A DNA stretch of 63,763 nt, counting the filler, from Hausera hauseri (lineage: Eukaryota): assembly GCA_046269625.1 (NCBI GenBank). It is 10 parts of 10 records of this genome, joined end to end, with 100 filler letters (N's around TTAATTAATTAA, not from the genome) between each part and the next. Parts side by side here need not be neighbours in the genome. Positions count along the whole stretch, not along the records: positions 38,675 to 51,128 come from JBJURY010033336.1; 9 more parts are not named here. One strand, given 5' to 3'. Position 1 is the first letter of the stretch, and every line of letters starts with the position of its first letter. The translations under genes and the position numbers were made by a program. Below the pieces are notes generated by a model, which worked only from the letters and a program-made list of their open reading frames with translations, did not search any database and was not told the origin of the DNA. This document shows positions 13,790-56,260 of the stretch, piece by piece.

Positions 13790-14040
13790 ATCATTTTTCA
13801 CAATGACAAAGTGGTTGCGTCGGTTGGGAGAATTTTCAAAATATGGAAACCGATTGACAACGAAGAGGGAAAAGTTTGGTTCTCTTACGATACCAATACC
13901 AAGATTAACGATTTGCTGCATTTTCCGAAGAGCGGATTGTTGTTTGCTGGATGTTATAAGCAAATGGTCAGCAGTTATTTTGTACCGCAGTTTGGCGATG
14001 CACCGTCATGGTGTGAACTACTCGGTAATTTTATCGTTGA
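13790..14040 (+). pseudogene. NOL10/Enp2 WD40-region fragment within chimeric ORF 13334-14389
   Basis: KIW...GK...INDLLHFPKSGLLF...YFVPQFGDAPSWCELL resembles the NOL10 pattern YYIPxLGPAPxWCSFL. Confidence 0.7.
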
Positions 14041-14339
14041 CGATAATAATTTTATTTTTTTAATAATTTTATCTTTCGATACGACCTCATTATTGCTTTA
14101 TTTTAAAACACAGTTGTATAAAATTGATTTAAAACAAAATTCATTCGCACACTTCTTAACATTGCATATGGAAAAGGTCGGTACCACACATTTAGTTTTG
14201 ATCTTTTGTTACAGATTGAAAAGTATCACGTTGAAGAACTATCCAGAACTGCAAGCGACTGTTATAAATTCGGGAATAGCACCACCATCGGATTCTATGT
14301 CAAATTTGAGACGTGTCAGAATAATGCGCAGTCCGAAAT

Positions 14340-15011
14340 TTGCCATTTATAACTTTCTGTATCATGTCACAGTTTTATCCGCAACGTGATGACAATCTTT
14401 ACCTTACTTTCAGACCCTTTGGTGAATACAAACCTCTTGTTGAAAAAGCACTTTGGCTCAATTCAGACAATCAACAGGTAATGGTATCTCATGAATATCG
14501 GCAGGCATCATCCGGAAGAAACCTTAAAGAACTTTGTAGTAGTTTCTACCAGTTATTCAGAGAAATGCTAAATTTCTCCGAATCACTCATAAGGCGAGGT
14601 ATTTTGGCAGTTAGCGACTTATCGCATGTCAATAGTTTTACCAACGGATCTTTTATGAGATCAGCACATGGTACCGATTGGGACCCCTTGACAGATATTC
14701 CCTGGGTCGGTGAGGCTGATCATCTGTACGAACTGTTGTCTGAATTTCAATCACACATCGGGCACATGAAACTTCGTCGTCGGGAAATTCATTTTCACGT
14801 GCAATTCAGAGACACTCACAACCCGTCGATGAATGACACGAATAGTCCGATAAATGAAGTAATCCCCAATGAACATGACTTCTCTTACCTGCCTTTCTCT
14901 TATACTGATTCCTACATTAAATCAACATACTCCAGCACGGATTGTAACGCAAATTTTTGCCAACCAAATCTTTCACATGTCTATCCAGAGCTTAATCAAG
15001 ATCGTTGCTAA
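14340..15011 (+). CDS. Unassigned 223-aa ORF
   Basis: Open frame with protein-like composition and no recognised motif. Confidence 0.25.
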   Translation: MPFITFCIMSQFYPQRDDNLYLTFRPFGEYKPLVEKALWLNSDNQQVMVSHEYRQASSGRNLKELCSSFYQLFREMLNFSESLIRRGILAVSDLSHVNSFTNGSFMRSAHGTDWDPLTDIPWVGEADHLYELLSEFQSHIGHMKLRRREIHFHVQFRDTHNPSMNDTNSPINEVIPNEHDFSYLPFSYTDSYIKSTYSSTDCNANFCQPNLSHVYPELNQDRC

Positions 15012-15071
15012 TCCGCTGACCTTTTCAACAACTTTCATACATCCCAGGACACTTACTGTCTCCTGTTATAC

Positions 15072-15860
15072 TTGAGAAATCCACAAAACGATAACCTGGA
15101 GGAAGATTTAAAACTTCTGCCTGTTGGAATGACGGGAGAAATCTTTGTATATGGTCCTACTCTTGCTCTTGTTTACTCCAAATGGTCTAATTTAAATGAA
15201 AAGATGTTTTTGCCACACAGTCAAGACATACTAGGGGACGCAAAAGCTAGAAATAAAATGTATCGTACAGGAGACCGGGGCTACCTGCTATCGGATGGTA
15301 GTCTAGAAATCTGTGGTCGATGCAAGGCAATGGTCAAAATCAGAGGCTACTCTGTGGAAATGGCCGCTAGTGAAAACACACTTATCGGGATGGAATACGC
15401 ACAAACTACTGTTGTTATTACACGTGGACAAGAAAGAGACGATAAATATCTTGTTTCCTCCATTTTCCTGAACGAACCAACACACTTTAAACAAATCAGA
15501 GGTGTTTTGAAACATCGACTGCCATTTTGTATGATACCATCATTCTTTGTAATCCTCAAGGAATTACCAATTCTTCCTGCTTCGAGTAAATTGAACAAAA
15601 AAGCACTTCGTCCATTGAACAAAGGCTTACACCTGTGTCAGCCTGATTTTCTCCCAGAAACTGAGACAGAGAAACAACTGTCGAAAACCTGGAGTAATGT
15701 TCCACAAATAAATAACATCAATGTTCAGGAAAGTTTCTTCTATCTTGGAGAACACTCATTGTTGGCGGCAAAATTATCGCATATCATAAATGAGAAATTC
15801 GACATTAAAGTGAGTGTTAAAGATTCGTATAATCATCCAATATTGAGTGCTATGGGAAGG
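15072..15860 (+). pseudogene. NRPS-like fragment: adenylation-domain C-terminus plus thiolation (PCP) domain
   Basis: GEIFVYGPTLA, YRTGDRGY, GRCKAMVKIRGY, LPILPASSKLNKKAL, and FFYLGEHSLLA (GGHSL phosphopantetheine motif, mutated). Truncated by a gypsy element. Confidence 0.85.
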
Positions 15861-18800
15861 TCGGTCACCCTGCAATCTGGGGTCCGCCGCGCCGGGGCGG
15901 AGGTCCCGGCTTTCAACCCTGCGCCGGTCAGTCAGACGGCGCTTTTCGCGTCGGCCCCACAACACGCTCCCAGGCACACTACTTTTCCCCTCTATTTTCC
16001 TTTTCCTAAATAATAAACATATATACACACTCATTGCATTACATTTACATATTACAACCCTTCGTACTTTCATTTCTTTCTTACTCAACTCTTCCGATTT
16101 TTATCTTACACAACGGTTCTATAATACCCCTCACCGGACCCTATCGTCTTTCCCAACCCACACTTGTATCCACATACATTTCCGTACCCGTGGTGGCATG
16201 AACTCGTCGCCAACCATAGATACCACGGACAAAACCACTACGAAACCAAAACCTGTTATACTGCTTCAAAAACCCATTCCTAACCCTGCTAGTAACCTCC
16301 CATTCATTACCTCTTTCGCTACTTTCCCTAACTGCACCGAATTATTTATTGACAACCAAGGCTTTATCAAAACTTGGTTGCAATTTCATCAACTATGGCT
16401 ACAGGCAAATAACATTACTGACTCTTTAACTAAAGCACATAATCTTCTCTTCTTACTCCCTAATAATATCAAAACACGCATTCACAACATCATCGAAATT
16501 TGTGAACTTCCTAATCCATATTCCCAACTTTTCAACGCAGTCCTTAAGATGGCAGAACCCTCCATGGACACGATCATACAACGTTTCTTCCACGACAATG
16601 CTATAGGCACCCAACGACCATCAGAATTCTTACGCACCTCTTTGGCACGTTTACATACCCTCGGCGTCACTAAAGAACACAATCCAGACCTACTGCGCCA
16701 CTATTTCCTCAATGCGCTACCTATCCAAATCCGGGCCCTACTTACCGTGGTGAAGGACTACACCGCTTGAGAAATTAGCCGAATTAGCCAATAGGACACA
16801 CGACGTCATACACGTAAATTCTCCAACAGTTGTTTTAGCAGCAGTTGCCGCTAACGATATTCAAACCAATAACACACCTACAGAACAACAACTTAATCAG
16901 CTACGTGCTGAAAATATTGCACTACACGCAACAATCAACAATATTAATAATAAACTAAGCGAACTCACCCTGTCCTGCCGGAGGGATTTTGTCGCTGACC
17001 GCGTTCGTTCTGCGTCTAGAAACGGCACAACATCGCTTGCATGTTCGTCGATCTGCTATTACCATAGCAGATTTAACACTAATCCTCAGAAGTGCTACCT
17101 AGGGTGCAAATTTTATAAAAAGAGTTTTTCCTCGAACACCATTGTTTGCATCTACCATGCAAGGTTTAAAAATCACGTTCGTTAATGCATTCCAGGTTGC
17201 ACTTTCAAACCAAATACGAACGACGGACGTACTACCTTTCCTTCTAATAGTCGTCCTAGGTCACCCTTTCAAAAAAACTAAGTTCGCCGCCAGAAGTCAC
17301 GGCAAACTCTGGCAAAGACACTACTTCACTTTCTGTACTCCGATACGTCTCTTTTGCTGTCTTTACTCTAAAGGTTGCAATCATAGCTCCTACAACGCAA
17401 TCTCTTAATTTTCTCATCGATACAGGTGCAGCGATTTCTTTATTACCATAAACTTTTCCTGTACAAAATTCCCCATTCAGAATTAAGCCCTTATACACCG
17501 CTTCAGGCCAACCGCTGAACATTTCTGGCATGGCTAAATTATCCTTCACCTTACCAAATTTTCCTTCACCTTTCCACTGGACGTTCACAGTCGCTAACGT
17601 CCAGACGGAAATTCTAGGATCCGACTTTCTATCACACTATAATTTATTGGTTGGTTGCAGTCAGAGATGTTTGAGGAACGGCACCACTGGCGACATTTCT
17701 GGACACGTCAATAGCATTTCGACTACCATGCAGTCGACCGGACGCGGAGGTCAATCTTGAAAAAATCAATGAATAATTCGAATTTTCATAACAATAATTC
17801 AATTCGTAAACTTTTAAGTAATAATATTGATATTCGATTGAAGTTCAATGTCGATAATTGTGGTACTGCCATCAACGTTAATTCATTCAACGGAATCACT
17901 TCATCTAACACCATTTTCAATTCGACCATCTTACACCAAATACCACTTGACTGCACATCACCAAACAACTCACAAATTGCATCCGCTACTACTCAATCCG
18001 TTTCACCACTTTCGCCGAATTACTCACAGTTACCTACAACTTTACAGCAATTCATAAACGTATAATGTCCACGCGTACTTAAAAAAATCGTACGTTTACT
18101 CCCGCGAACATTACTTTACACCACATAGTTACACAGCATCAACATCCAATACGCCAAAAGGTACGACCTCTGTCATCTCGACGTAGACAGGCCGTAGAAG
18201 CCGATTTTCTTGAACTAAAACGTCCCGGCATAGTACGCCGTTCCAAATCTCCTTGGTCATCACCTTTACACGTTGTACAAAAAAGGACGGTACTTTTAGA
18301 CCATGCGGTGGCTACCGACAGCTGAACAACTTGACTATCATTGATGCGTACCCTTTACCACTCATCAAGGATATCCTGCATCGTCTTAATTCAACCACCA
18401 TCTATTCCACCATTGATTTAGCTAAAGCATAACATCAAATACCGGTGGTACGCGAAGACATAGAAAAAACTGCTGTCACTACTCATTTTGGTCTCTATGA
18501 ATACCTGTTTATGACATTCGGTTGGCGGAATGCCGCACAAACTTTTCAGCGGCACATTGATTGAATTCTTTCAGATTTCCTGTTTGCACACCCTTATATC
18601 GATGATATTCTAGTCGTTTCATCTTCGGCCAAACAACACGAGCAACACCTTCGCGTAGTATTCCAACGCCTTAACCACCATAATCTCAAAGTCAGTTTCG
18701 ACAAATGCCATTTCTACAAAAAGCGCGTTAACTTTTTAGGCCACGTTATTTCACCAGACAGTCATTCTCCCCAACCAGACCCAGTTGAAGCTCTTGAAAA

Positions 18801-21723: not shown

Positions 21724-22784
21724 GTGTATGATTTGCTACAAACACAAACACTACCACCACCCCGAATGGTTGAACGACAATCAAAGACAAATCTTTACAT
21801 TAAAGGATTACCAGAAAATTTTAACGATAATGCATTGGAAGCCCTGGTACCGGATAAGTTGAAAATCAAATCACTCAAAGCCGCATTAGAAGATGACTTT
21901 CGATGCAAAGGTTACAGATTCATTGACTTCATAACCGAAGAAGACACCAGAGATGCATTGTCATACATCCAGTCAAAGAACCCTCAGTACAGTGCAAAAT
22001 ACGCCAAGGAGAATTAGAAGGACAAAACAAATTGATGTCACAAACATTCCAAAAAATTGAACAAGCAAGGACAGTAACAAATTAAATGTATATTTCGAAA
22101 AATTCGGTCCTATTCAGTCTGCCTTTACAATGATGGAAAAATCGACGAACAAAACCGTCGGTGTTGGTTTCGTACGATTTGTTTACGAAAACAATGCTCT
22201 CGACGCTCTGCAACAAATACAGAGGAGCCTTAACTATCTTCCTGGAACAGACAGACCGATTGAAGCAAAATACGCTGATAAACACAATCTCGAAACAAGA
22301 AAACGGCGAAACACATCATCTCATATAGATCCTCTGGCAGCAGTTAGGTGGATCAATTTAATGAATCCAAATGTCGCGTTAGCAAACAACCTTTACGGAC
22401 CTCTATGCAGTCAGCCGTTACTGCTGCGGAACCAAGGAATGTTTACGTCCCCATCTCAAGTGCCGCTCATAACGTCAACAGCGGATACGGGATCACATAT
22501 AGATATATCTGCACTGTACAATTTACCATCCGCAAAATAACTATCTTTATCAGCGTCAGAATCAGTTGTTAACAATGCAAGGTTGTAGGGACCTTTCAGG
22601 GACTGCTGTGAATTCGTTTATCCTTACCAATAGTTTGACAAATCCCAGTTCCAGTAAGAGCTCAGCAGCAACGACAAATCAACGCCTCGATCTACCTAAC
22701 TATCCACAGCTCACCAGTTACCCGACAACAACTCCAAATATGGTTAATCAGACAACATCGTCCTTGACAACTGAATCAATCTGA
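21724..22784 (+). pseudogene. Two-RRM protein of the alan shepard/RBMS/SUP-26 family, intronless retrocopy-like
   Basis: SKTNLYIKGLP, CKGYRFIDF, AKEN*KDKTN, GVGFVRF, LPGTDRPIEAKYAD; low-complexity tail; AATAAA near 23007; stops and frameshifts. Confidence 0.75.
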
Positions 22785-23091: not shown

Positions 23092-23624
23092 AGTAGGGAG
23101 AAAATGTGCTTTTGGTCCCACCTCGGTGGGGGGGGGTAATCAATACATCGATGTTGCATAGGTGCCGACCGATAGTGCACCCGAAGCACTATCGATCCAA
23201 AAAGTGCCTAGCAACGGTGCCCTTAGTCACAGTTGCTAATGGCACTTTTGCCTTTTCACTAATCGATCGCTGCACAGTACACTATTGATCAAATCGATGG
23301 TACAAAGTGTTAATCGATAGTGCACATAAGTGCACACCGATTGCTGCAAGTACAAGTGTGCAGAACATGTGCAAGTGTGCAAAAATCAATAATATTGGAT
23401 TTCCGATATTTCAAAAAGTGCTGATTAGCACTTGTGATCGGGTGCAATTGGTAGTGCACGTGATGTTTTGTGTGAATGTGCAGTTAGAATTTAAATCGGT
23501 TGATTGGTTTTCGAATAATTCGCAAGTGGGGTAAAACCGCCACAGGACTTTCCGCTATAAATTTTAAATCAATGATATGAATATGGCACATATACTGGCG
23601 TGTGCAGTACTTGATGTAGTATCG
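23092..23624 (+). repeat. Probable Polinton terminus/TIR starting AGTAGGGAGAAAATG
   Basis: Inverse homologue of 12300-12740; the AG-starting terminus fits Polintons. Confidence 0.7.
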
Positions 23625-38674: not shown

Positions 38675-38745
38675 TAATTATTTGCGGTTGTAGATCAGTG
38701 ATGTGTGGAAATTATAGGGGGCGGCGTTTCTTTTGAACATACCTG
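38675..38745. mobile_element. Terminus of a Tc1/mariner-type TIR element, followed by TA at 38746-38747
   Basis: GAAATTATAGGGGGCGGCGTTTCTTTTGAACATACCTG is the exact reverse complement of 51043-51080. Confidence 0.85.
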
Positions 38746-38747
38746 TA

Positions 38748-39591
38748 TATAACAGATATTAAAAATGATAAAAAGAAATCAATAAGATGTGAAATAACCC
38801 ACAAGCAACAGTCGTCATGTTGCAATGTTACGAGAGGAAAGATGTACCAGATAAACTACAAATTAATCCGCAAAGAACAAGGAATTGTTTCCAATATACT
38901 AAAGCAGAAAGGTCCAATGATGTACGTAAAATACAAAAATCTTACTAAGTATAAAGATAAACATTCGAAAATCTCGACGCTATCAGTGCACTCCCAATTA
39001 ATTAATAAAACTAAAGAGATGACCATTTTGATCCTACCGTATGCGTCACATTCCCGACCGAAACGGTCCATCTGGGAAAACGTAACAATTACACCGACAA
39101 CCACTGCATTAATCATAGCGGTCAAACCTGACCTAGATTTCTTTAAAATAAAATTCACCTGCAAAGTCCAGCAAATGATAGTCGCAACAGGCGTAATTAC
39201 GCCCGATGATTTAATTGTACCTTGCGCAGCCCTGACTCCTGATACAAAATACACCATTACACTTAATCTGTACAACGAAAATAACAAGGTAGTGTCCACA
39301 AAAATCTTGACAGCCTATACAAAAGATACCAAGGAATCAGATTTAATAAAACCACCCAAAAGCAAAATCACACCCAAAATAGTAACTACAAAGAAACCAA
39401 CAAGAGCAATATATACGTATTCACGTATGGAATTAATATTAATAGGTACGATAACCCCTGTCGCACTAACTCTACTAATAATAATCGCGATAAAAGTAAT
39501 TAAGATGAAACGACAACGTCAAAAACCCGGTTGGGTACGCATAGACATGCGTCGCCTAACAAAGCCGCTGGACTCGGATAATCCGAGCTAA
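38748..39591 (+). CDS. C-terminal part of the retroelement polyprotein: Cys-containing beta module, furin site RPKR, FN3-like domain, stalk, TM helix and tail
   Basis: Open from 38749 in the frame of ORF 38842; ALTPDTKYTITL; TM LILIGTITPVALTLLIIIAI followed by KMKRQR; joins 51042 in frame. Confidence 0.8.
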
Positions 39592-39720
39592 CAATTACAT
39601 CAATGGATTGCATGTTACGCAATCCAGTATATTAAGATAACTAAATATGATTTAGTTACCTTAAGAACTCATAAAATTCAAAATCGAACGATTGCCTACG
39701 TATTATACTCGACAACCGTT

Positions 39721-41022
39721 ATGATTACGTTAAGTATACCTTGTAACAGTACATTGACTATTATTTTTACAGTTATGAAATCTTCTCAATCTATCCAGTC
39801 CTCCACAGCGATGCAGATCCAAACATTGCAAAGGTCAAAACACTGGTACGACAATGCCAGAAACCATTTGATAAACGCAGGGCCAACAAATCAGTATCAT
39901 GTTGTGATGAATGACAATACCTATTGTCTAAATTATCCACACCTCCAGCAAATCCCCAATAATCTCAAGGGGTACAGTATGGCTAATCGGTCACTGGCCT
40001 TAATACAAATGACCAAAGCCACTTCATTCCTCATAAAAGACCTGATCACCTTACCCAATAAATATCACAGCCTCAATGTCTACGACATACTGGGAAAATT
40101 CCAGATCAAAACAAAGAACTCAACCACGAAAATGGCAGGTGATCTTATCAATCTAGACCCTAACTATGGAATATCTATTGATTCCAAGTTCATGGATAAA
40201 AACACGATAAAAGTACGTTCCCTTACCAACCGTATAATGATAGGAGTTGAGGTAATAAAATCAGAAAAATTCTGGCCCACGGAACCCCAGGGAAGATGCT
40301 TCAACCTGCCAGAACCAGACTACCACCAATATAAAAAGAAATCGTATCGAAGGACAACCGACATCAATGAAAGCGACATGGCTATCGTTGCAGTAAATTT
40401 GGCCTATGACCAGTTTAACCAACTCCAGCCGATAGAATGCAGCATTATGAATCTAACTGGCGAAACCCTCTTCTATTCAATTATCACGCCTAGACAGAGG
40501 ATTAATAACTATGACACTCACGTAACCGGATTGACCGAGTCGCAAACGAACAATCAGATGGATGTGAATGACTTCTACCAGAAGGTCAGCACAGTCTTAA
40601 CGGATAAGTTGGTAATCGGGGCCAACGTATTAGAAACATTAACAAATTATCTCAAATGCCCACTACGAAGAATTGCAGGAGTTTGCGATATTTTATATCA
40701 AGAGGACGTACTGCAAAAATACCATATGGAGGTTATCAGTCATAAGGAGCTAGCCAAACGCTTCTATGAGACACGAACCATGCCACTTCGAAGTACAGTA
40801 TTGGTTCAGTGTTATCAAGCCATTTACCGTTCGTTAAAATGGATGGACGATGTGATCGACACAAGCACGAGCCCCGATAAGGTGTTAAAAACACCCCCGT
40901 CATCTAGAAAAAGGAAATTCCAGATGGAAGAAACCATATTTATGAATGGAGAAGTCTTCACAATCGACGCAGTGCGATATAAATCGCAATCCGGAAACTA
41001 CATCTATCTTCCTCCTTCTTAA
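39721..41022 (+). CDS. Accessory ORF with a C-terminal ISG20/REX4-like DEDDh exonuclease fold, catalytic residues apparently degenerate
   Basis: IVAVNL...CSIMNLTGETLFYSIITPRQRINNYDTHVTGLT...VSTVLTDKLVIGAN...DI; intact 433 codons. Confidence 0.7.
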   Translation: MITLSIPCNSTLTIIFTVMKSSQSIQSSTAMQIQTLQRSKHWYDNARNHLINAGPTNQYHVVMNDNTYCLNYPHLQQIPNNLKGYSMANRSLALIQMTKATSFLIKDLITLPNKYHSLNVYDILGKFQIKTKNSTTKMAGDLINLDPNYGISIDSKFMDKNTIKVRSLTNRIMIGVEVIKSEKFWPTEPQGRCFNLPEPDYHQYKKKSYRRTTDINESDMAIVAVNLAYDQFNQLQPIECSIMNLTGETLFYSIITPRQRINNYDTHVTGLTESQTNNQMDVNDFYQKVSTVLTDKLVIGANVLETLTNYLKCPLRRIAGVCDILYQEDVLQKYHMEVISHKELAKRFYETRTMPLRSTVLVQCYQAIYRSLKWMDDVIDTSTSPDKVLKTPPSSRKRKFQMEETIFMNGEVFTIDAVRYKSQSGNYIYLPPS

Positions 41023-41059
41023 AAGAAAAATTCGGGGCAATTTTCTTCGGCCCCCCATC

Positions 41060-41923
41060 AACTTATTCAGTCGACATTTTACAATTTTGTGTCTCATATT
41101 TTTTAATTCACATTTACATGCTGCGATCGACATATTTATTATTGACCGACATTTCTATTATTGATCTGACCTGCAAAAATATGTGCTATGACTTCGAGAA
41201 TAATTGGGTGACATATGTTATTTTTAGCGATATTTCCCATTTGACATTTGACAGTACTTAACCGACATTTACAGTCTGCAATCAATTTTTAATTCTCCTA
41301 TATCTCCCATTTGACATTTTGTAATCTGTAATGTGATTTTTTAACCAGTGGTGTGCTATATACGATCCTGCATGACATTTTTAGTTTGTTATAGACCATT
41401 TTTTTAATGATTAATGCAATTCTGCATGTTTATAAATCAGGTATAAATACCTGTGGTTTAACGTACGATTTAGAACAACTTTTGACAACAAGTTTTTGAA
41501 TCAAGTTTGGGTATTATTGTTACTTTAAGTATGTGTTTACTTTTCTTAATATCGTAACGGTTATCAATATTTTGCTCTTTTGTTTGTAGATAAATTACTA
41601 AGTAAACCAAGTAATTAAGTAATCGAATCTAAATAACTTGGAGGACCCGACGTGCTGTCAGACCGCCGCCCAAATAATCAAACTAAACTACAGTCAAATA
41701 AAACCGTAGTAACTAACGAGTAACACACGCATACCTTGACCCCGACACACTACCCATAAGTTAAGATAGTAAGGTCCTTGGACTCTCTCTCTACTCACAT
41801 CGCATCGAATAATCTCCCTATTTGTTCACCCGTTGGTTTAATAATTGTCGTTTAAAAACAAAACCAATCGTCTAAAGAAAAGATAAATACGCTCTCCCCA
41901 TTTAAATCAACGGAGACTGAACA
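41060..41923 (+). repeat. LTR of the env-bearing gypsy element (5' boundary approximate)
   Basis: Non-coding, ends ...GAACA two bases before the PBS; TATA-like TATAAATA at about 41442. Confidence 0.65.
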
Positions 41924-41925
41924 AC

Positions 41926-41943
41926 TGGTGCCGTGACCCGGGA
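41926..41943 (+). promoter_or_regulatory. Primer-binding site, tRNA-His-like
   Basis: TGGTGCCGTGACCCGGGA compared with the canonical tRNA-His PBS TGGTGCCGTGACTCGGAT. Confidence 0.8.
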
Positions 41944-42094
41944 GTAAACCATTCGCATATAAAAAAAATTTAAATAATAAAGTAATAAAATTACCAAGAT
42001 AGCTACCAGATCTGGTGCTAGATATAAAGAAGAAAACGAAATTGCATACGGTCTTGAATATTTAAATAATCTTAGTGAAGAAGAAAACGAAATA

Positions 42095-45000
42095 ATGACA
42101 GGAAATAATGCACCCATAGAGCAGGTGATTCAGTCAAAGGCTGATTTTACCCTGCCAATGAAGAAATTTTCAGGAAAAGAAGACGTGCAAGACTTTATTA
42201 TGGAGTATGAAGTATACTCGAAAAGTTTCGGATGGACTGATCAGCAGCGTGTAGAGAGGCTACCTCTCCACCTAAAAGGGACTGCTCTAGCCATTTATTT
42301 TCAAATGCCTGATGCCGATAAGAACGACTGGAAAGTCGTAAAAGAAAAATTGCCTCAAAAGTTTTTGGTTGACCCTACCGGAAAAGGGAGAATTGAAGAA
42401 TTCATAAGAAGAAGGCAACGTAAAGACGAAACGGTTCAGGAATTTGTATGCGCTTTAGAGAAATTGGCTGCACGAGCATACCCAGATGCAACGACAAGAA
42501 GTAACGCCTTATTGGCCCAATTCCAATATGGATTAGAAGAAAGATTGAGGACAATAATCTCGCAGGCTGACCCATCCACGTTTTTAGAAGCAATAAGAAA
42601 AGCACGTAAAGCTGAGAGAGATGCTGAGTTTTATAGATGGAATAGATTCAGAAATTATAACAATAATAGTTACGATAAACGTAAAAATAACAGCACTCAA
42701 AGGTATGAACGATACGAAAGGAATAGAAGTCCATCCCAAACCTCAGCCACTGAAGCTGAGTCAGATGGAGAAAAGAAAGTAAGATTCAAACTGAGAAATG
42801 AAGGAGAGAAAACATCCTATAAAAAGAAATACCCCAAAAAGGATGGAAGATCATGGCCAAGTATAGATTCAGAAGGAAGATTAAAGTGTTTCAATTGCAA
42901 CAAATACGGCCATATTGCCAAAGCGTGTAGGTCACGAAAAAGAGAACCTATGAAGAGCAACATGAGATATAATAACAATAATAAACCCAAGAAGGACTAT
43001 ACATCAGTTACATCAGACGAATCATCCGATGGAGAATACGAAACAGAAGAAAGTGAATCGGAACGAAAGAAAAAAGAAAGTACTAATTATGTCAATGATG
43101 TATTGTCTCATCGAATGAAGACGCAATTAGCGATGGAATTAAAAGATTATAAGACTCAACAAAAACGGTTGAAAGAAAATAGTATCTGCACAATAGAAGA
43201 TAAGCCTGAAGGAACAAAAACTCGACGAAGTAGGAAGAAGAGTAATAAAAAGATAATCGAAGTGGAATCAAGAGAGACTTCAGTGGAGAAGAGTGATGTA
43301 GAAAAGAAGACAAAGAGAGGACGGAAGAAGAGTTTAATTGGAGAATCAACCTCGGAAGAAGGAGAAGAAGAAAGTAAACCGGTAAAAATATTTGATGAAA
43401 CAGTGATGGAGCAGGTAATCCAAAGAAAAGAAGTTGACTTAGATGCTGACGATGAAATTATCGAAGCTATAGTTGCTATTAACCCCGAAAACGTCGAAAT
43501 AGATGGAGCAATAAAAGCCTTACTGAAATTAATAAACAGTAATGTATCAGCAAATAAATTAAACGAAATATTATTTCAATTATTGTTACTTGCGCATGAC
43601 ACCAGCCCAGTTCGAGACATAGCACGAACGATACTAGCTAAAGCAGCAGAAGCAGAGATAGGAAAAAGTGAATTTATCAGAATAACTTTAAAGGAAGGAA
43701 ATCAAGACCTGAGAGTAATCCGGATGAAGGAAAATGACGACATAGAGACCCTACGCGAGAAAATCGTAGAATTAGAACCGGATTATAGAGAAAAACTGTA
43801 CGGATTAAGTTTCTATGGAAGAACGCTATATAGTTATGACAACTTGTTACGGATAGGCATTAGAAACGAAAATTATAATCCCATTACCATTACTCTAGTG
43901 GAGATTCACCCGGACGCCAGAGCTGAGGTAGTAGCAGATAATATAATTAGAGAACTGGAGCCACCAGAAGAACATTTGCTAGGTGACACTCAAGATGTTA
44001 CAGTTCAGACAGAGGCAAGAAGAAGAGGAAGACCGAAAGGTACCAAGATAAGTGACATCAAGAATAAAAGAGATAGAAATGAAGAGATAGTACGCCGGTT
44101 GTTGTTATCAGGAATAGATATGACGCCAGAGTCAGTAGACATCGACCCGCTAATAAGAACGTTACTAGCAAGATTGCACACCTCATTTGCATCATTCGAT
44201 ATGCAAGTGACAATTCCAGATGAATTATTTCAGTCATTACGAAATTCATTATTGAGAATTAGTAGGCAATTTTACGAAAATATTACGGAAGAAAGAATTA
44301 ATGAATTACACGAACAAGATATTGTAGAAAAGATGTTGGCCTCAGGAGTTACTCGAGAAAAGGTATTAACCGCGGTGTCATACATAATCTATAAAATAAT
44401 TGCCACTAATCACCAAACAGAAAATCTTGAAGAGATTGATCGTAACATCAAGACCATAGTTAAGGTTTTGCGAGATACGCTACAAAACTGGGTTCAATGC
44501 AGAGGAGGTTGGATACCGAGTTTAATGGCTAACACAGCCATAACGGAAATGCCAGACAGACCTTCTGGCTCACCAGCGACCACTCCACTTAACCAAAATG
44601 CTATTAGACAAGGTATAACGAACGTGTCGTTTGTGGAAATCCTTCAACTTCTCTTAATCATGTCCATTTGCGCACCTAATGCTATGGGTATAGTAGCATA
44701 CGACTGCTCAAAGCCGAAAGAAGGACAAAAGTATTCATTTGTTGACCTTGAAAAATGTCCAGAAGCGGACCCAGAACAATTAGTCACTACTACTGGTCAT
44801 CGATATTGGGTTTATCAGGAATCCGAATTTATAAAAGTCAAAATACGAGAATGTTATTTGAAACGATCTTTTTTCCTTTTCAATTGCGCATATTACTCTG
44901 GTAATTCGGCAATAATAGAACCAACTACACCATTTGAGCCTATAATAATATCTCGTGCCGAATGCCAAGACGCTTTTAAAATTGGAACAATAACGGTGCA

Positions 45001-48000
45001 AAATGCACATATACCCGCAGTAAGAAATAGAATAAAATATACTCGAATTTTCCGAGCAGGAAAAATCGACAAAACTAGAGAAGGAACTTGCAAAGGAGTA
45101 GACTATGACGTAGGCGGAACAATCGCACCTAGAACGGTAGCCATTGAAGATTACCAAGTACAATTGAAAGAATATGAAGCGTTGTTTGACTCGCAAACTA
45201 AATTAATGACTACGATGGCTGAGTGTGAATACGATAACGGTGAATGTGACACAGGAGAATCGAAGATGGCTTGGGAAGTATCTACAAAAAAATGCCATTT
45301 AACCTTGCTAAAAAACGGAATATTTAACAAAACGGTAGGGAAATCAACCGATAAAGAGACAACTACGTTTAAGGAAGGAGTAAAGGAAGCAAAAATGACT
45401 GAAGTCGCTACTATAGTGTTCTCAGCAAACCCAGAGGAAATGATGAGATTCAAAATCACAGGCACGCTGAACAAATGTGACGAAGAAATATTTAAAACTA
45501 ATTACAAAGGGATATACTTGTCCTTGAAACAAGTACACGGAGCAAAAGCGAAACTAGACAAAACGGATATAAAGTTAACCCAATATTTCGATAATAAAAT
45601 AGATTTCCTAATCAACTATGTAAGAATGGAAATTAGAAGTCTATACAGGGAAATAATGATGAATGAATGTAAATTAAATTACGAAATTATGCGAAATAAG
45701 ATGGCTCTGGTAATGACTAACCCAGACATGGTAGCCCCGGTAATGCCATTCGGTGATGGAATAATTGGTAGAATAATGGGTGAAATACTAGTAACTATCG
45801 AATGTAAGAAAGTAGATGTCAAATTAAGACCCACGAATATCTGTACTTCAGAATTACCAGTAGAATACCAGAATGAACCGCGTTATGTAATGCCAGTAAC
45901 AAGAATCCTATTGGAAGCCAACGTGAAGCCGACAATTCTTTATAATTGCACTTTTAACATGTCACCAATGTTCAAAATCAATGATAAAAGTTGGATACGA
46001 ATGCCTAATAGAGAAACGATGCCAGCTCCAGAAATGCTTAGCCTAGTAAATCTGCAAAGGAATCATAAATTCGAACCTTTAACGAGTATCCCACAAGGAG
46101 GGATATATACAGAACAAAACTTAGAGGACTATCGGAGAATGATAATGTTCCCACAACAAAGACAACGAGTAATAACAGAATTGACAAAAAGAGTAATGTG
46201 GGACGGAGAAGGATCACCACAATGGGAAAATCTGATGGGAAAAGACTATTTAAAGAAAGTAACGAGAAATATCATGGAGAAGATGTGGGGAAGATTTCTA
46301 TATTTCGGACAAGCAGCTTCAGGATTTTTAGCAATATATTTTATTATCAGTGCCCTACGAACCATATTTACTGCACTGGGAAAAGCATACGGAATTCACG
46401 CTGCAGTAGGATGTTCGTGGAAAATTTTAATAGCTGTAATACCGGCGGTAGCCAGTTGTTTCCTGGCTAACCATGATGCTAAATGGAAAAAGAAGTTACT
46501 TAAAGAAAAGAATAAAAATGTTGAAGATACCTCACCTTACAGCATAATAAATGACAAAAATGATGATGACGATGACGGTAAGGCGGATAACAAGGAATCC
46601 ATTAGTAATAAATACCTTACCAGAATGAAAAGATTTTCGTTAAGACCAAGAAAAAAGAAGTACAAGAAGAAATTACTAACGGACCTGCCACAACTAAATT
46701 CAGCGGACGAATATAATGGACAAATCTGTACATCAACTTCAGCCCCGTATTATGTACAATCTTTGAGATATCAAGACAATAACGGCTTAGAAAGAAGAGA
46801 AACGTATCCCATGTATCAAGTGTTGCAAATGAAAAGAAGTTACGACGAAAATTTACCATCTCAGCCTACGTGCAAAACGAATGATAAGAATGCACCAAAA
46901 ACACCTACTAGACCCGAAGTAATGATAGATGTGAACGGATACCCAATGCTTGCGTTAATAGATACAGGATCGACCACAACGATAATGGGAAAAAGTCAGT
47001 TACCACCAAAACTCTTGAGAAAACTAAGGAAACCAACAGAGACACTAGTTAACGTAGGAGCATTTGGCACTGAGGAAGAAATAAAGACTGTCCTAGATGC
47101 CAAAATTAAAATATGTAATCAGATAATTGACCATACCATCAGAGTAGCGGAGAACTTAACGAACGAAATCCTTATTGGATGTGACATTTTAAGTCAATTA
47201 GAAGAAGTCTATATTGATCTAAAAACAAGTCAACTTAGGACGTTTGGCAAGAGAGAATGTGAAGGGTCAGTCACCTTAACAAGAGAAATGGTAATACCAA
47301 GTAGAAGCGAGATAATAACGACCGGAAGAATCCAAGGAAGGAGGGAATTTGAAAATGTGCATTTCGAACCATCATATCAGACAATGGAAAGATATGATAT
47401 TCTAATCGCTCCGCATATCGATAAAATACGAGATGGGAAGATTCACCTAAGAATCTGCAATACTGGGAACAGGAAAATACGATTAAGAAGAAATACTAAA
47501 ATGGGATATATAACGGCAATTGAGGATATATTGACCGGATCCGTCAAAGAAAGTGTTAACTCTATAATTTCAGATGTGGATAAGATTGAGAAAATGATAA
47601 ATAAGAAATTGAGTGATGGAAGACAGAAAGTGGAAACGAAGAAAACCCCAAATCATATTAACTGGGAAGAGAAGTTACAAGAATGTAAAATGTTAAACGA
47701 AGAAGAAAGAACAGCACTAAAACAGCTCCTAGAAAGGAATAATAAGCGGTTTGCTCAAAGTGACTACGACTTGGGATCTATGAACGTAATACGACACTCT
47801 ATTAAATTAAAAGATGGCCAAGATAAACCAATAAAGAAGCGACCTTATAGATTAGCATATGATAAGAAAGAGCAAGCCCGCCAGATTATAAAAGAAATGA
47901 GAGAAAATAAAATAATTCGACCTAGTTGTTCTCCTTGGACAGCCCCGGTAGTAATGGTTAAAAAGAAAGACGGAGCTATGAGATTCTGCATAGACTATCG

Positions 48001-51000
48001 AGCCCTTAACGAAATAACAGAAACGGACACCTATCCGCTGCCCAGAATCGACGAGATCCTAGATAAGTTGCACGGATCAGCTATATTTACAACCATAGAC
48101 CTGCAGAAAGGATACTGGCAGGTAGAGATCAAAGAGGAAGATAAACAAAAAACTGCCTTCTCGATAGGCGAAGGATTATGGGAATTTAATAGAATGCCCT
48201 TTGGATTAAAGAACGGCCCACCAACGTTCCAAAGAGGAACAGAGTTGTTATTATTAGACGCCCCTCATGCAATGGTCTATATCGATGATATAATAATCGC
48301 ATCACCTAGTTTTAGCCAACACTTAAAGGATTTACAAGATCTGTTTGATAGATGTGAAATAATGGGTCTTAAAATTAATCCGAAGAAATGCTCATTCGCA
48401 CAAGAAGAAGTCGACTTTCTCGGACATCGAGTAGATCGATATGGCGTAAAACCATTAGAAAAGTTACTCGGAAAAATTAAAGATTTTCCAAAACCTACCA
48501 CCGTAAAGGAACTACGTCGATTCCTGGGATTAGCCAATTATTATCGCAGATTTATAAAAGATTTCAGTAAAATAGCCAAACCATTATACGAATTACTGAG
48601 AGAGGATCTAGAAAAAGTAATATGGACAGCCGACTGCCAGAATTCATTCGAAACTTTGAAAGAAAAACTGCTAAGCGCTCCAATCTTAATATATCCCGAT
48701 ATGAAGAAATCATTTATATTGGCAACAGATGCAAGTGACTACGGAGTCGGCGCAGTATTATCACAAAAGGGCGAAGATGGAAAAGAACACCCAGTAGCTT
48801 ACGCATCAAGGAAGCTGAATAAGCATCAGAAGAAATATGTGGTTATCGAAAGAGAACTATTAGCCGTAATATTTGCACTAGAAGTATTCTCACCTTATAT
48901 CAGTGAAAATAAACCTGTATTGATATACACAGACCATCGACCATTACAATGGTTAAAACAGCATGAAAACCCAAATAGTAGATTATTACGTTGGGCTCTT
49001 AAACTTCAACCATATACCCTGAACTTCCAGTATAAACCTGGAACGCGTAATGCCAACGCGGATTATCTATCAAGATTACCAGAAAACCAGGAAACAAAGA
49101 AAGCCGTAGTAGCAGCTATATGGAGCATGGACGGATCCATAGAGAAGATAAGAGAGAACCAAAGCGAAGATGCCGAAATAAAGGCCATTAGAGGTTATTT
49201 GATGAATAAAATCGTGCCATCAGATAAAGAGTTAGCACGACACCTAGCTAGATTTAGTGAAGCTTACGAAGAAAAAGAAGGATTCTTGTATTATATTCAC
49301 CAGAACGGGCCCGCATTAGTAATTCCAAAGAAGAATCGAGCGGTATTATTAACCCAATACCATAATGGATTATCGGGAGGCCACCAATCGGTAAGAAAAA
49401 CAATAAATAAACTGAAAAGAAAATATTTTTGGTCTACTATGGTAAAGGACGTACAAGAATGGTGCGATAGTTGTAAACTATGCTTCACCCGTAAAAATAC
49501 GGGCTCAAAATTTAAAGCACCCCTCAAAGTATGGGACAATCCACCAGCACCATTTGAATTCACCGCAATGGATATAACAGGACCTTTACCATTAACACGG
49601 AATGGAAATAAATATATCCTCGTGTTCATAGATTATTTTACTCGATGGGTAGTGGCGATACCTATGCATGATATGAAGGCAGACACAATTGCTGAGAAGT
49701 TCGTAGAAAACATTGTTTTCAACTACGGAGCCCCCAGAATATTACTAACGGATCAAGCCTCCAATCTAACAGGGAATGTCATGCAAGCGATATATGAGAT
49801 CATGCAGATACTGAAATTGAGATCAACGCCCGGACACCCAGAAAATAATGGCATGATCGAAAGATATATCGGAGATCTGAAAAGCAAATTACAGACAGTC
49901 GTAAGCGTCAGACAAGATGACTGGGACGAATATATCAACGCATGTGTTTTCGTAAATCGAACATCAGTACATGAAGCTACCAAAGAAACACCATTTTACT
50001 TAATGTATCTGAGGGATGCCAGATTACCAATCGATTTAGACTTCAACGTAAAACCAACTTCGCATTTGATGGAAGTAGAAGAATATAAACAGCTAATGCA
50101 GGAACGCTTACAATTGGCGTACAAAATAATAAAAGGAAATCAATCGGATTATAAAGACAAATATAAGAAGTACTATGACAAGAAAACAAAGAAGCCGAAA
50201 ATTAAAGTGGGTGATAAAATAATGCTACACGTACCATTGAGCAAGAAAGGAAAGACGTCCAAATTAGATAGACCCTATAAAGGTCCATATGAGGTAGAAA
50301 AAGTGGACTTACCTAACATCTGCATAAAGAAAAATAATGCCACGTTCAAAGTGCACGTGAATAGATGTAAACCTGCAGCTAAAGAAAGCCATCTCAGAGA
50401 AGATGAACAGGAAATAGTGAGAACAATTAGCGAGAAACCAATCGGTAAACAAACCACATATACAAGGGTTAGCATAAAAAACTATTTCATATTTTTAATT
50501 TTTATGCTATTGCCTGGTGCTATAACACAAACAATAGAACAGGAAGCGATGAAATCCATGATATGTCATCTAATATCAATATCAGATGATTCATTACTGA
50601 AAAGTATCAAACATCATATAATATATTCCAAAAAGGGTCAAAAATGTATAAAATTTTACGCTGAAAAACCCTTACCTACCAATTATACCGTAGGAATTCA
50701 AGTAATTCATGAGGAGGATCATAAAGAAAAACTAACTCGACAGAACTACGATTGTGAGCTACATTATGAAACAAATGAAACAGAATGTTTAATAGAAGAA
50801 GCCGGTTTATATAACCTATATTATACGCTCATTAAAAAGCGAGGCAATCTCTATCGGACGCAAGATGCTAAAAAGATGGGTCTAATAAAAATTCTTAACA
50901 AACATGAAATGAATGTCACGCAATTAGATGTAAAAATTATCGAACAAATAACAGCAAAACTGATTGCTTTTAAAAACGGAAGAAGTTGCGTTGAAATAAC

Positions 51001-51076
51001 GACAAGGATAAAATTGGAATATAATCGAAGAATAAACATATACAGGTATGTTCAAAAGAAACGCCGCCCCCTATAA
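42095..51076 (+). CDS. Single-ORF Ty3/gypsy polyprotein: Gag, Ubl, AT-hook, Bcl-2-like, class III-like glycoprotein, PR, RT, RNase H, IN, second ectodomain
   Basis: CFNCNKYGHIAKAC at 42887, RRGRPK at about 44020, NWVQCRGGW at about 44490, signal peptide plus IVAYDC at 44690, TM about 46290-46470, DTGS at 46961, YIDD at 48278, TDASD/TDHRPL, HHCC, DDE core, GPY. The last 11 codons come from the inserted TIR. Confidence 0.95.
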   Translation: MTGNNAPIEQVIQSKADFTLPMKKFSGKEDVQDFIMEYEVYSKSFGWTDQQRVERLPLHLKGTALAIYFQMPDADKNDWKVVKEKLPQKFLVDPTGKGRIEEFIRRRQRKDETVQEFVCALEKLAARAYPDATTRSNALLAQFQYGLEERLRTIISQADPSTFLEAIRKARKAERDAEFYRWNRFRNYNNNSYDKRKNNSTQRYERYERNRSPSQTSATEAESDGEKKVRFKLRNEGEKTSYKKKYPKKDGRSWPSIDSEGRLKCFNCNKYGHIAKACRSRKREPMKSNMRYNNNNKPKKDYTSVTSDESSDGEYETEESESERKKKESTNYVNDVLSHRMKTQLAMELKDYKTQQKRLKENSICTIEDKPEGTKTRRSRKKSNKKIIEVESRETSVEKSDVEKKTKRGRKKSLIGESTSEEGEEESKPVKIFDETVMEQVIQRKEVDLDADDEIIEAIVAINPENVEIDGAIKALLKLINSNVSANKLNEILFQLLLLAHDTSPVRDIARTILAKAAEAEIGKSEFIRITLKEGNQDLRVIRMKENDDIETLREKIVELEPDYREKLYGLSFYGRTLYSYDNLLRIGIRNENYNPITITLVEIHPDARAEVVADNIIRELEPPEEHLLGDTQDVTVQTEARRRGRPKGTKISDIKNKRDRNEEIVRRLLLSGIDMTPESVDIDPLIRTLLARLHTSFASFDMQVTIPDELFQSLRNSLLRISRQFYENITEERINELHEQDIVEKMLASGVTREKVLTAVSYIIYKIIATNHQTENLEEIDRNIKTIVKVLRDTLQNWVQCRGGWIPSLMANTAITEMPDRPSGSPATTPLNQNAIRQGITNVSFVEILQLLLIMSICAPNAMGIVAYDCSKPKEGQKYSFVDLEKCPEADPEQLVTTTGHRYWVYQESEFIKVKIRECYLKRSFFLFNCAYYSGNSAIIEPTTPFEPIIISRAECQDAFKIGTITVQNAHIPAVRNRIKYTRIFRAGKIDKTREGTCKGVDYDVGGTIAPRTVAIEDYQVQLKEYEALFDSQTKLMTTMAECEYDNGECDTGESKMAWEVSTKKCHLTLLKNGIFNKTVGKSTDKETTTFKEGVKEAKMTEVATIVFSANPEEMMRFKITGTLNKCDEEIFKTNYKGIYLSLKQVHGAKAKLDKTDIKLTQYFDNKIDFLINYVRMEIRSLYREIMMNECKLNYEIMRNKMALVMTNPDMVAPVMPFGDGIIGRIMGEILVTIECKKVDVKLRPTNICTSELPVEYQNEPRYVMPVTRILLEANVKPTILYNCTFNMSPMFKINDKSWIRMPNRETMPAPEMLSLVNLQRNHKFEPLTSIPQGGIYTEQNLEDYRRMIMFPQQRQRVITELTKRVMWDGEGSPQWENLMGKDYLKKVTRNIMEKMWGRFLYFGQAASGFLAIYFIISALRTIFTALGKAYGIHAAVGCSWKILIAVIPAVASCFLANHDAKWKKKLLKEKNKNVEDTSPYSIINDKNDDDDDGKADNKESISNKYLTRMKRFSLRPRKKKYKKKLLTDLPQLNSADEYNGQICTSTSAPYYVQSLRYQDNNGLERRETYPMYQVLQMKRSYDENLPSQPTCKTNDKNAPKTPTRPEVMIDVNGYPMLALIDTGSTTTIMGKSQLPPKLLRKLRKPTETLVNVGAFGTEEEIKTVLDAKIKICNQIIDHTIRVAENLTNEILIGCDILSQLEEVYIDLKTSQLRTFGKRECEGSVTLTREMVIPSRSEIITTGRIQGRREFENVHFEPSYQTMERYDILIAPHIDKIRDGKIHLRICNTGNRKIRLRRNTKMGYITAIEDILTGSVKESVNSIISDVDKIEKMINKKLSDGRQKVETKKTPNHINWEEKLQECKMLNEEERTALKQLLERNNKRFAQSDYDLGSMNVIRHSIKLKDGQDKPIKKRPYRLAYDKKEQARQIIKEMRENKIIRPSCSPWTAPVVMVKKKDGAMRFCIDYRALNEITETDTYPLPRIDEILDKLHGSAIFTTIDLQKGYWQVEIKEEDKQKTAFSIGEGLWEFNRMPFGLKNGPPTFQRGTELLLLDAPHAMVYIDDIIIASPSFSQHLKDLQDLFDRCEIMGLKINPKKCSFAQEEVDFLGHRVDRYGVKPLEKLLGKIKDFPKPTTVKELRRFLGLANYYRRFIKDFSKIAKPLYELLREDLEKVIWTADCQNSFETLKEKLLSAPILIYPDMKKSFILATDASDYGVGAVLSQKGEDGKEHPVAYASRKLNKHQKKYVVIERELLAVIFALEVFSPYISENKPVLIYTDHRPLQWLKQHENPNSRLLRWALKLQPYTLNFQYKPGTRNANADYLSRLPENQETKKAVVAAIWSMDGSIEKIRENQSEDAEIKAIRGYLMNKIVPSDKELARHLARFSEAYEEKEGFLYYIHQNGPALVIPKKNRAVLLTQYHNGLSGGHQSVRKTINKLKRKYFWSTMVKDVQEWCDSCKLCFTRKNTGSKFKAPLKVWDNPPAPFEFTAMDITGPLPLTRNGNKYILVFIDYFTRWVVAIPMHDMKADTIAEKFVENIVFNYGAPRILLTDQASNLTGNVMQAIYEIMQILKLRSTPGHPENNGMIERYIGDLKSKLQTVVSVRQDDWDEYINACVFVNRTSVHEATKETPFYLMYLRDARLPIDLDFNVKPTSHLMEVEEYKQLMQERLQLAYKIIKGNQSDYKDKYKKYYDKKTKKPKIKVGDKIMLHVPLSKKGKTSKLDRPYKGPYEVEKVDLPNICIKKNNATFKVHVNRCKPAAKESHLREDEQEIVRTISEKPIGKQTTYTRVSIKNYFIFLIFMLLPGAITQTIEQEAMKSMICHLISISDDSLLKSIKHHIIYSKKGQKCIKFYAEKPLPTNYTVGIQVIHEEDHKEKLTRQNYDCELHYETNETECLIEEAGLYNLYYTLIKKRGNLYRTQDAKKMGLIKILNKHEMNVTQLDVKIIEQITAKLIAFKNGRSCVEITTRIKLEYNRRINIYRYVQKKRRPL

Positions 51077-51128
51077 TTTCGTCGCAAATGGAAACGCCAC
51101 CCATAAAATTTCATCGCAAATGTTAACG
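51043..51128. mobile_element. Other terminus of the Tc1/mariner-type element, preceded by TA at 51041-51042
   Basis: CAGGTATGTTCAAAAGAAACGCCGCCCCCTATAATTTC. Confidence 0.85.
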
Positions 51129-54699: not shown

Positions 54700-55070
54700 C
54701 AAAGGTGGCTGTAATGTAAGCCACTATAAGCAGTAATGTCCGCACAGTATAGTCATTGGATATTGATAATGAACTCGATTATATTCAACACCATATGACA
54801 ATGATGATTATAGTTCAATTTGAGAAACTAACGATGACGGATAGTAAAATCCGAGCGAGTCGAATACTCTGATGACGTTGGTCGGATTGTGAACGTACAC
54901 AGCAATCCAATGTTCTCCCGGCAACGGTGAAGTGTGTATTGACAATAAGGTCACCGCAGCCACTTTGTCCTTAATCACACGGCACACGGTCCAGTGGAAA
55001 CACGCAACGAAATTTTACGCCGAAGAGCAGTTTTCCGTAGTTATTGAGCACGGTGGAGCTAAATGTGAAT
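54700..55070 (-). pseudogene. Polinton cysteine protease, second copy
   Basis: NTHTSPLPGEHWIAV...VFDSLG...YQYPMTILCGHYC contains the His/Asp/Cys triad region; homologous to 1-210. Confidence 0.85.
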
Positions 55071-55149
55071 TAAGTATAATAGTAATAGTAGTAATAAATT
55101 ATTTCATGGTACGACGACGAAGAAGAAAAGGTGAGACAGCGGATTTCAT

Positions 55150-55337
55150 ATATACAGTGACGGTTCCGTTTTTCGTTATTTCAACCTCGGCATCAAATAC
55201 ACCTTAAATGTACATCACGATAGATTGCTCCAACGCTTTGGCAAAGTGAATCTCCAGTCGCAGGTTTCCCTGCTGAGGTAGTTGAGTCTGTTCAACGTCA
55301 TAATCCGGAGCCAGGACAAAAGTGAAGAATGGATAGG
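55150..55337 (-). pseudogene. Polinton major capsid C-terminus, second copy
   Basis: Nucleotide homologue of 284-455. Confidence 0.8.
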
Positions 55338-55437: not shown

Positions 55438-56260
55438 GCTGTAAAAACCATCCTTGGGTGGTAATGAGGACTCATCCAGTGTTTCCCATGATGTTATATA
55501 ATCATAGGGAAACACTGCTTTCCTTTTAACCAGGTCAAAGGTATCCGGAAAGAATTGCTTCGTTTCCTTGAGTTCTTTGACAGGCAGGTTCTTCACTAAA
55601 CTATCCCGTAAAGATGACATGAATCTGAAACTATTGATGAAACAAAATCGGATTTTACCAGCATGCTTAGTGAAAGTGATATATTTTTCCTCACTGTTGG
55701 GGATCACCTCAATGTTTACTTCAATGTTGCCTAATTCTCGGAATATGAAGTGGCTATCATAGCCACTAAGATTATGAAACACTAGATTGCAGTTGTTACA
55801 TGCTGCGCCACGATATGCACCTTAACTTTCCAATTTTCCTTGATGAAGGACTTTTCGCACAAGTAGCATGATGCTGCCTTGTGCCATTATTGTTCTTGCA
55901 TCCAAGACATGCTCATGTCGTCCTTATGTTGTTGTAGAATCCTTTGAAGATTATGAGCCATGTCTTCAAATCTCTTCATGAAATGTGCTGCTGCATCTGG
56001 ACCCCTGAATAGATATGGTGCATTGTCCAATTCTTTGGCATACATACAATACGATTAGAGTTCGTGATATTGGTATGCCGTTGTACTGCTATGTTGAGGA
56101 CTGGGACTGTATTTGTGAACTGGCTTGAGAATGGCCTCAAAGTCGCAACAGATGACAATTGAGACCTTGATCCTCCTCTCAAATTCCTTAAATTCGATAT
56201 AGTCCTCTTTGGGAAATTCTGGCCTTACACAATAATTGCTGTTTCAGTACATCTTGTGCT
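55438..56260 (-). pseudogene. Polinton PolB exonuclease region with an endonuclease VII-like Zn insertion
   Basis: CDFEAIL, CYLC...YRGAACNNCNL, FHNLSGYDSHF, EEKYITF, SFRFM, RKAVFPYDY; overlaps 9753-9990 in sequence. Confidence 0.88.

Follow-up and report, generated by a model that had tools for sequence, protein, structure and literature searches.

The window analysed here is a 63,763-nucleotide stretch of DNA of Hausera hauseri (GenBank assembly GCA_046269625.1) in which N-TTAATTAATTAA-N spacers separate ten contigs. One of these contigs (JBJURY010033336.1; positions 38675-51128, 12,454 nt) carries a Ty3/gypsy retroelement whose polyprotein continues, beyond the integrase, into a second membrane protein. 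The contig contains three open frames of 3031 codons (41981-51076), 284 codons (38737-39591) and 476 codons (39592-41022), the longest of which runs from Gag through a glycoprotein B (gB)-type Env and Pol into the first piece of the second membrane protein (Table 1). The element was assigned to Ty3/gypsy by the order of protease (PR), reverse transcriptase (RT), RNase H (RH) and integrase (IN) together with a Ty3-type Gag, and by a tRNA primer site located just after a long terminal repeat (LTR) ending in CA. The gB-type Env lies between Gag and Pol, as in the GAG-ENV-POL gB-type errantiviruses.

In a sequence-only reading of the window, an env-like type I membrane protein had been placed after the integrase and continued at 38748-39591. 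All motifs named in that reading were found in place, including KKGQKCIKF at 50630, TECL... at 50780-50839 and KNGRSCVEI at 50972 in the first piece, and RCEI at 38785 and SCCN... at 38815-38874 in the second. The open frame extends 223 codons beyond the integrase and the second piece comprises 280 codons; a chance open frame was rejected as an explanation, since 0 of 2000 base shuffles of either piece were stop-free. The proposed type I topology is borne out by hydropathy, which predicts a signal-like segment at the beginning and a transmembrane (TM) helix near the end of the protein.

In the window copy, the protein is broken at 51042/38748, within module 2. The contig starts and ends in a perfect inverted repeat with TA adjoining each arm (two matches, none expected). 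We read this sequence as a multi-copy DNA transposon, of which only the end parts (71 and 86 nt) lie within the contig and which we take to be Tc1/mariner-like, given that its inverted-repeat termini are flanked by TA. One X1 contig (3326 nt, depth 12.1) runs from 50063-51040 straight into 38746-41092, with 6 and 2 letters differing, respectively. As it spans both pieces directly, an uninterrupted copy or allele exists, on the evidence of one contig of one run, X1, that may be the window's own source. This junction shows, for one copy, the continuation of the protein into the second piece. The window copy itself would yield a truncated, unanchored piece and is probably non-functional. Most likely, the permuted order arose because the assembler collapsed two near-identical LTRs and came to a halt at the repeat from either side. 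The circular order was not accepted as proof of a real circle or of a composite transposon, both of which are less parsimonious than LTR collapse. Neither the insertion nor the probable assembly effect figures in the sequence-only reading. The permuted contig contains one LTR-like region only, and no purine run followed by TG was found there; the 3' end of the LTR was set at the point up to which an X1 contig tracks the window before departing from it. The summed X1 depth is 12-17 over 39091-39922, with one contig over 50451-50592, whereas it reaches hundreds to thousands across the gag, gB and pol regions; this contrast, which is not a measure of copy number, hints that sister families differ in the region of the second protein.

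Table 1 Features of the retroelement contig, beginning with the second membrane protein.
Feature	Position	Strand	Basis or remark
Second internal signal-peptide-like segment YFIFLIFMLLPGAITQ	50483..50530	+	Hydropathy; 111 nt past integrase end (50371), in frame
Ectodomain piece 1: module 1 and start of module 2	50531..51040	+	Predicted; model pLDDT 40
Ectodomain piece 2: rest of module 2 and linker	38748..39054	+	Family profile, 8.3 and 8.6 bits
RPKR, furin-type consensus	39055..39066	+	Not conserved in the clade
FN3-like domain next to the membrane, seven-stranded, containing the two family cysteines	39067..39324	+	Predicted fold, family profile
K/P/T-rich stalk	39331..39426	+	47% K/P/T over 34 residues
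Transmembrane helix	39427..39501	+	19-residue hydropathy up to 2.65; helix in model
Basic cytoplasmic tail, ~27 residues, no PDZ-type end	39502..39591	+	Stop 39589-39591
Inserted inverted-repeat element, one end	51043..51128	+	Arm 51043-51080, TA 51041-51042; cut by contig end
Inserted inverted-repeat element, other end	38675..38745	+	Arm 38708-38745, TA 38746-38747; many X1 contigs on it
Single open frame: Gag, accessory domains, gB-type Env, PR, RT, RNase H, IN, second membrane protein piece 1	41981..51042	+	Frame reaches 51076, 11 codons into the inserted repeat
Ty3 capsid-like domain and CCHC zinc knuckle	42155..42931	+	Pfam; capsid E 2.4e-5, below cut-off
Ubiquitin-like and Bcl-2-like segments	43661..44512	+	Ubiquitin-like by eye, no Pfam match; Bcl-2-like Pfam E 8e-4, below cut-off
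Internal signal-like segment, gB/chuvirus-type fusion glycoprotein and membrane-proximal hydrophobic segments	44630..46540	+	PF24664 E 1.2e-88, residues 886-1520; hydropathy
Protease, RT, RNase H, integrase	46907..50371	+	Pfam, motif positions
LTR-like non-coding region	41063..41923	+	3' end 41923 (CA); 41063 is merely a contig break in X1
Primer-binding site	41926..41937	+	Complementary to last 12 nt of tRNA-His (tRNA-His column, supp1 of PMC13524379)

The fibronectin type III (FN3)-like domain claimed in the sequence-only reading was recovered for the membrane-proximal module (module 3) by modelling, Foldseek, VIA-align and a family profile alike. The single-sequence model of piece 2 contains seven strands at residues 113-191 with a predicted local distance difference test score (pLDDT) of ~70-88 as well as the TM helix, the remainder scoring below 50. 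Module 3 superposes on FN3 structures with Z scores of 9.8 (rmsd 2.6, 84 aligned) and 8.9 (rmsd 2.6-2.9), 84-87 residues being aligned, and its Foldseek list is headed by FN3 entries, with other Ig-like sandwiches tying with FN3 within 1 Z. The viral fold library gave nothing beyond generic FN3/Ig-like matches, and Pfam gave nothing credible for either piece, including no fn3 match. The family profile, built from 16 motif-picked modules of 10 relatives with the window sequence excluded, scored 25.8 bits on piece 2 (FN3 domain 20.2, remainder of module 2 8.3; 1000 shuffles reached at most 8.6), and a widened version gave 19.6 and 8.6 bits for the same two parts and 0.9 bits for piece 1 (best of ~1000 shuffles 8.1). 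Beyond its training set, the profile matched P0110, an additional module of P0033 and a unit before the protease of P0035, while none of 65 proteins from outside the clade matched and none of the other window segments (700, six-frame) exceeded 5.3 bits. In HHalign against the relatives, piece 2 aligned to the membrane-proximal module (E 0.006, probability 6%). These results point to a predicted FN3-like fold for module 3.

For module 1, the single-sequence model was uninformative, the family profile gave about 0.1-3.1 bits and HHalign of piece 1 against the relatives found no match. The two similar modules of the sequence-only reading hold up as a modest likeness between modules 1 and 2, with shuffle p values of 0.0005 and 0.0055 when windows were picked by eye and of 0.0135 for the unselected whole pieces, but an FN3-like character is supported for the third module only. 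Module 1 does not resemble the latter (shuffle p = 0.17), so its fold can be approached only by way of module 2. The label 'env-like' likewise applies to the topology but not to the function, as nothing fusogen-like was seen: a second fusogen was rejected because there is no fusion-protein match and an FN3-like domain is present instead. The furin-type RPKR exists in the window protein but is no feature of the clade, furin-type sites being found in 4 of 18 ectodomains of the relatives, and furin cleavage as a family trait was rejected on these numbers.

Relatives were searched with gB, which gave 3 long proteins among 2143 candidates, and with RT-IN, which gave 85 among 3369; screening of the 147 new proteins among the 150 matches listed by HMMER with gB yielded a further one (P0110) that extended past the integrase. 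The window element belongs to a clade of 22, formed by 20 of the 85 RT-IN relatives, P0110 and the window element itself, with a support of 0.995 without P0110 (82/85 past the length filter) and of 99 with P0110 (7 outgroups, P0075 excluded); the deeper branching inside the clade is weakly supported. Seventeen of the 21 relatives have gB before Pol, and in the other four the open frame starts downstream of that place. A signal-like segment of the same kind follows the integrase in 18/21 relatives. It is accompanied by an ectodomain, a TM segment and a tail in 16/21 (15 by hydropathy scan, P0110 by eye) and by an Ig domain with a short hydrophobic end in 2/21 (Pfam Ig_3 E 1.5e-5 and 4.1e-8); two relatives stop at or within the integrase. 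Thus, both conservation in sister elements and a signal/TM topology, the two points on which the sequence-only reading had staked its proposal, were found. Outside the clade, 0/65 RT-IN matches have this gB or the module. Ten of these 65 elements carry a long membrane protein after the integrase without an upstream gB, in one case with a rhabdovirus-G match, so the slot is the usual position of Env, here held by a non-fusogen. Further searches comprised a word search with residues 2780-3020 in proteins of 1667-5305 residues (0/402 candidates), a metagenome scan with the integrase (8 distant loci, 26-43%) and a scan of viral contigs with gB (no match).

The slot is conserved and its contents are variable. 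By ectodomain, the 21 relatives divide into 11 of FN3 type, two of Ig type, two small Cys-rich ones (P0028 and P0032, ~100-120 residues), three unassigned and three in which it is lacking or cut. Ectodomains have up to three disulphide-bearing modules and up to 14 glycosylation sequons. P0035 carries another entire unit of signal, FN3-type module and TM before the protease (residues ~45-230, 29.2 bits) in addition to the one after the integrase, and the cassette therefore moves as one unit. The C-termini of P0038 and P0040 consist, by eye, of signal, Ig domain and furin-type site followed by a short hydrophobic stretch without a tail, resembling a GPI-anchor signal. Extra aspartic-protease-like copies occur in P0003, P0004, P0028-P0031, P0033, P0034, P0037, P0039 and P0109, many of them between integrase and second signal and up to several per polyprotein; the window element has none after the integrase.

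We consider it unlikely that the second protein represents captured host gene fragments of little function that are in frame merely since the copies are young. Such a passive cargo would agree with ectodomain sequences that are scarcely alignable between subclades, with the differing cargo and with the broken window copy, and the four X1 differences listed at 50451-50592 are all non-synonymous, albeit too few for a test. It is at odds with elements just 43-50% identical in RT-IN that still keep the order of signal, ectodomain and TM as well as a Cys-containing module, and with the second whole unit of P0035. Even less probable, in our view, is a topological device, in which the second signal and the TM segment would tether the end of Pol to the gB membrane and aid assembly, the ectodomain being replaceable filler. 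The anchor layout is indeed better conserved than the identity of the ectodomain, but a tether needs neither disulphide-bearing modules nor sequons in such numbers, and for IN a cleaved signal would suffice as one.

In two clusters of close copies, the second protein is in frame in 5/5 and 15/15 distinct members read (the latter 15 out of 20 listed). The ectodomains differ by 1.26% compared to 0.19% for gB and 0 for RT in the first cluster, and by 1.82% compared to 0.17% and 0.30%, respectively, in the second. Such a fast-varying ectodomain, together with the switching of domain types in the clade, is as expected for a host-facing binder. In the P0003 cluster (P0009-P0022), signal and ectodomain separate the 15 members into two haplotype groups, with 7/27 signal positions differing, which hints at cassette exchange between sister copies.

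We propose that the second protein is a regular part of this gB-bearing Ty3/gypsy clade and serves the gB fusogen as a partner in attachment or cell contact, a reading to which we assign about an even chance. According to PMC13524379, herpesvirus gB needs gD, gH and gL, and the entry of gB errantiviruses is unexplained. In the proposed mechanism, translation would thread the polyprotein through the endoplasmic reticulum membrane twice and signal peptidase would release the second protein from the integrase. The protein would thus be made one-to-one with gB and Gag and would reach the same membrane. There, gB would carry out fusion, and the second protein would bind a molecule on the host surface through its variable FN3/Ig-type ectodomain. 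In many relatives, a PDZ-type tail would direct the protein to junctions or budding sites. More tentatively, the two proteins may form a two-part entry machine encoded in one polyprotein, with a conserved class III fusogen that has moved ahead of Pol and a swappable receptor-binding cassette of host type in the old Env slot; this cassette would comprise FN3 repeats, an Ig or a Cys-rich domain, often with a PDZ tail aimed at cell junctions.

Several points weigh against the role as an attachment partner. The co-occurrence with gB rests on one clade and thus on one evolutionary event, and some class III fusogens, such as rhabdovirus G and baculovirus GP64, act alone. P0029 possesses gB and has no hydrophobic segment after IN (1/21), and Z scores of 8-10 are middling for a fold as common as FN3. 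The pre-Env accessory region of the second cluster varies by 1.85%, like the ectodomain, so relaxed constraint fits equally well. The cargo of the polyproteins is varied altogether (ankyrin, C2H2, extra protease copies, ubiquitin-like, Bcl-2-like), and small Cys-rich ectodomains and long Tyr/PPxY/PDZ tails recall signalling mimics rather than spikes. Moreover, the tail of the window protein has no PDZ end.

In a rival reading that we regard as possible but less probable, the protein is a host-modulating membrane protein of the producer cell, absent from particles, that serves as receptor or adhesion mimic, immune decoy or superinfection blocker. Signalling or docking would proceed by way of its tail. 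The Bcl-2-like and ubiquitin-like cargo fits this reading, and the cargo of the planarian Burro elements is tied to apoptosis and ubiquitination in the available text of PMC6431247. Class I PDZ-type ends occur in 8/16 relatives compared to 1/65 outside proteins and V/L/I-final C-termini in 13/16 compared to 10/65; YxxPhi motifs are present in 9/16 and PPxY in two. Look-alikes of the protein in the Atlas are the FN3 single-pass proteins FNDC9 and FNDC5 and cytokine receptors (0.90-0.91; recognition 2278, under the 2300 mark). The eight PDZ cases are mutually related, however, the background ends include partial proteins, and the window tail, which has neither a PDZ end nor a tyrosine, speaks against this reading. 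A structural role would better match the presumed one-to-one synthesis with Gag and gB. An attachment partner and a host-modulating protein are not mutually exclusive.

The backbone of the element is already known from Burro-like elements and GAG-ENV-POL gB errantiviruses. Reportedly, the nematode endogenous retroviruses of Sacco et al. 2022 have a continuous gag-env-pro-pol with Env between Gag and protease, as in the window element, and their extra open frames are said to encode a small hypothetical protein or a helicase rather than a second membrane protein. According to the available text of PMC6431247, the planarian Burro/GYPSM1 elements share with the window element a single polyprotein in which Gag and a zinc knuckle precede an in-frame Env, followed by PR-RT-RH-IN; their ubiquitin-like and Bcl-2-like segments before Env have putative counterparts in the window element, seen by eye and below the Pfam cut-off, respectively. 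They also have ankyrin repeats, which are present in three relatives of the window element. This layout suggests a flatworm host. They are giant, with more than 30 kb, multi-kb LTRs and an open frame of ~5000 residues, compared to a 12.5 kb contig and a 3031-codon frame here, and the window element, unlike Burro/GYPSM1, has no BIR or MATH match in Pfam. That text mentions no membrane protein after the integrase, and 'fibronectin' is absent from it. On this comparison by description, we class the window element as Burro-like in layout, not as Burro. The HSV/gB-type GAG-ENV-POL errantiviruses of Platyhelminthes, Bryozoa and Nematoda (Chary and Hayashi, PMC13524379) agree, in the available text, with the window element in having a Ty3/gypsy Pol preceded by a gB-type Env, as well as in LTR end and tRNA primer site. 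A tRNA-His site, as in the window element, is found in 0/14 Bryozoa and Platyhelminthes rows shown of supp1, and the main text contains neither 'fibronectin' nor 'accessory', its analysis of the region C-terminal of IN concerning chromodomains. Overall, the literature search found no second membrane, FN3 or Ig protein after the integrase, although figures and Repbase entries might describe one.

Animal FN3 single-pass proteins (FNDC5, FNDC9, cytokine receptors and receptor phosphatases) have the same arrangement of signal, FN3-like domain, stalk, TM and short tail. The window protein differs from them by the missing Pfam fn3 match, by identities of 5-21% in the structural matches and by the conserved cysteine pair of its module, and no donor gene was identified. 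Entry machineries split between a fusogen and an attachment protein exist in paramyxoviruses, where F works with HN/H/G. The division proposed here, into a conserved fusogen and a variable attachment protein, would be analogous to this and to herpesvirus gB with gD/gH/gL, but no sequence or fold link to these systems was found and the two proteins of the window element would derive from one polyprotein.

Some features of the element lie outside this argument. The Bcl-2-like segment is common to the window element and P0002, P0105, P0106 and P0111, and the ubiquitin-like segment is detected in P0002 (Pfam E 4.4e-5); an AT-hook-like segment (44021-44041) lies amid these segments, between Gag and gB. 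The 476-codon frame (+) follows immediately, in the same frame, on the single stop of the second protein. Its C-terminal half (from ~40381) resembles DEDDh exonucleases of the ISG20/ISG20L2/PolC type, all three matches being exonucleases (E 0.06-0.39). The segment is probably inactive, judging from a first acidic motif that is apparently replaced, and the frame could be an antiviral-nuclease mimic. No homologue was present among 251 fetched proteins, no credible Pfam match was obtained, and diverged X1 contigs overlie its positions 39885-40850.

Elsewhere in the window, inverted repeat arms (12314-12707 and 23128-23519, ~83-85% alike) enclose 10 kb that presumably contain, as judged by eye, host-gene-like pieces, namely a NOL10-like (13298-14389), an adenylation/NRPS-like (15012-16013) and an RRM-like one (22061-22540), as well as a decayed Gypsy element. 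Fragments resembling Polinton/Maverick capsid, integrase and DNA polymerase B were seen by eye at 684-1376, 4216-4707 and 9697-11313 on the minus strand, and similar DNA recurs at 54889-55335 and 56024-56260. Positions 28100-32000 form a 4-kb T-rich microsatellite-like array with a 4-nt-based period that gives long spurious open frames.

Taken together, the second protein is a real, clade-wide addition to a known type of element that is apparently undescribed, its function being predicted. To our knowledge, only one Env is attributed to retroviruses and errantiviruses. The second membrane protein, which comes from the same polyprotein as gB and occurs clade-wide, offers a concrete candidate for a gB partner that can be tested, and its changing ectodomain could explain tissue targeting. 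The two-part entry machine, if true, would be the retrotransposon counterpart of herpesvirus gB plus gD. If the protein is host-modulating instead, it would extend the apoptosis- and ubiquitin-related cargo known from Burro-like elements to the cell surface.

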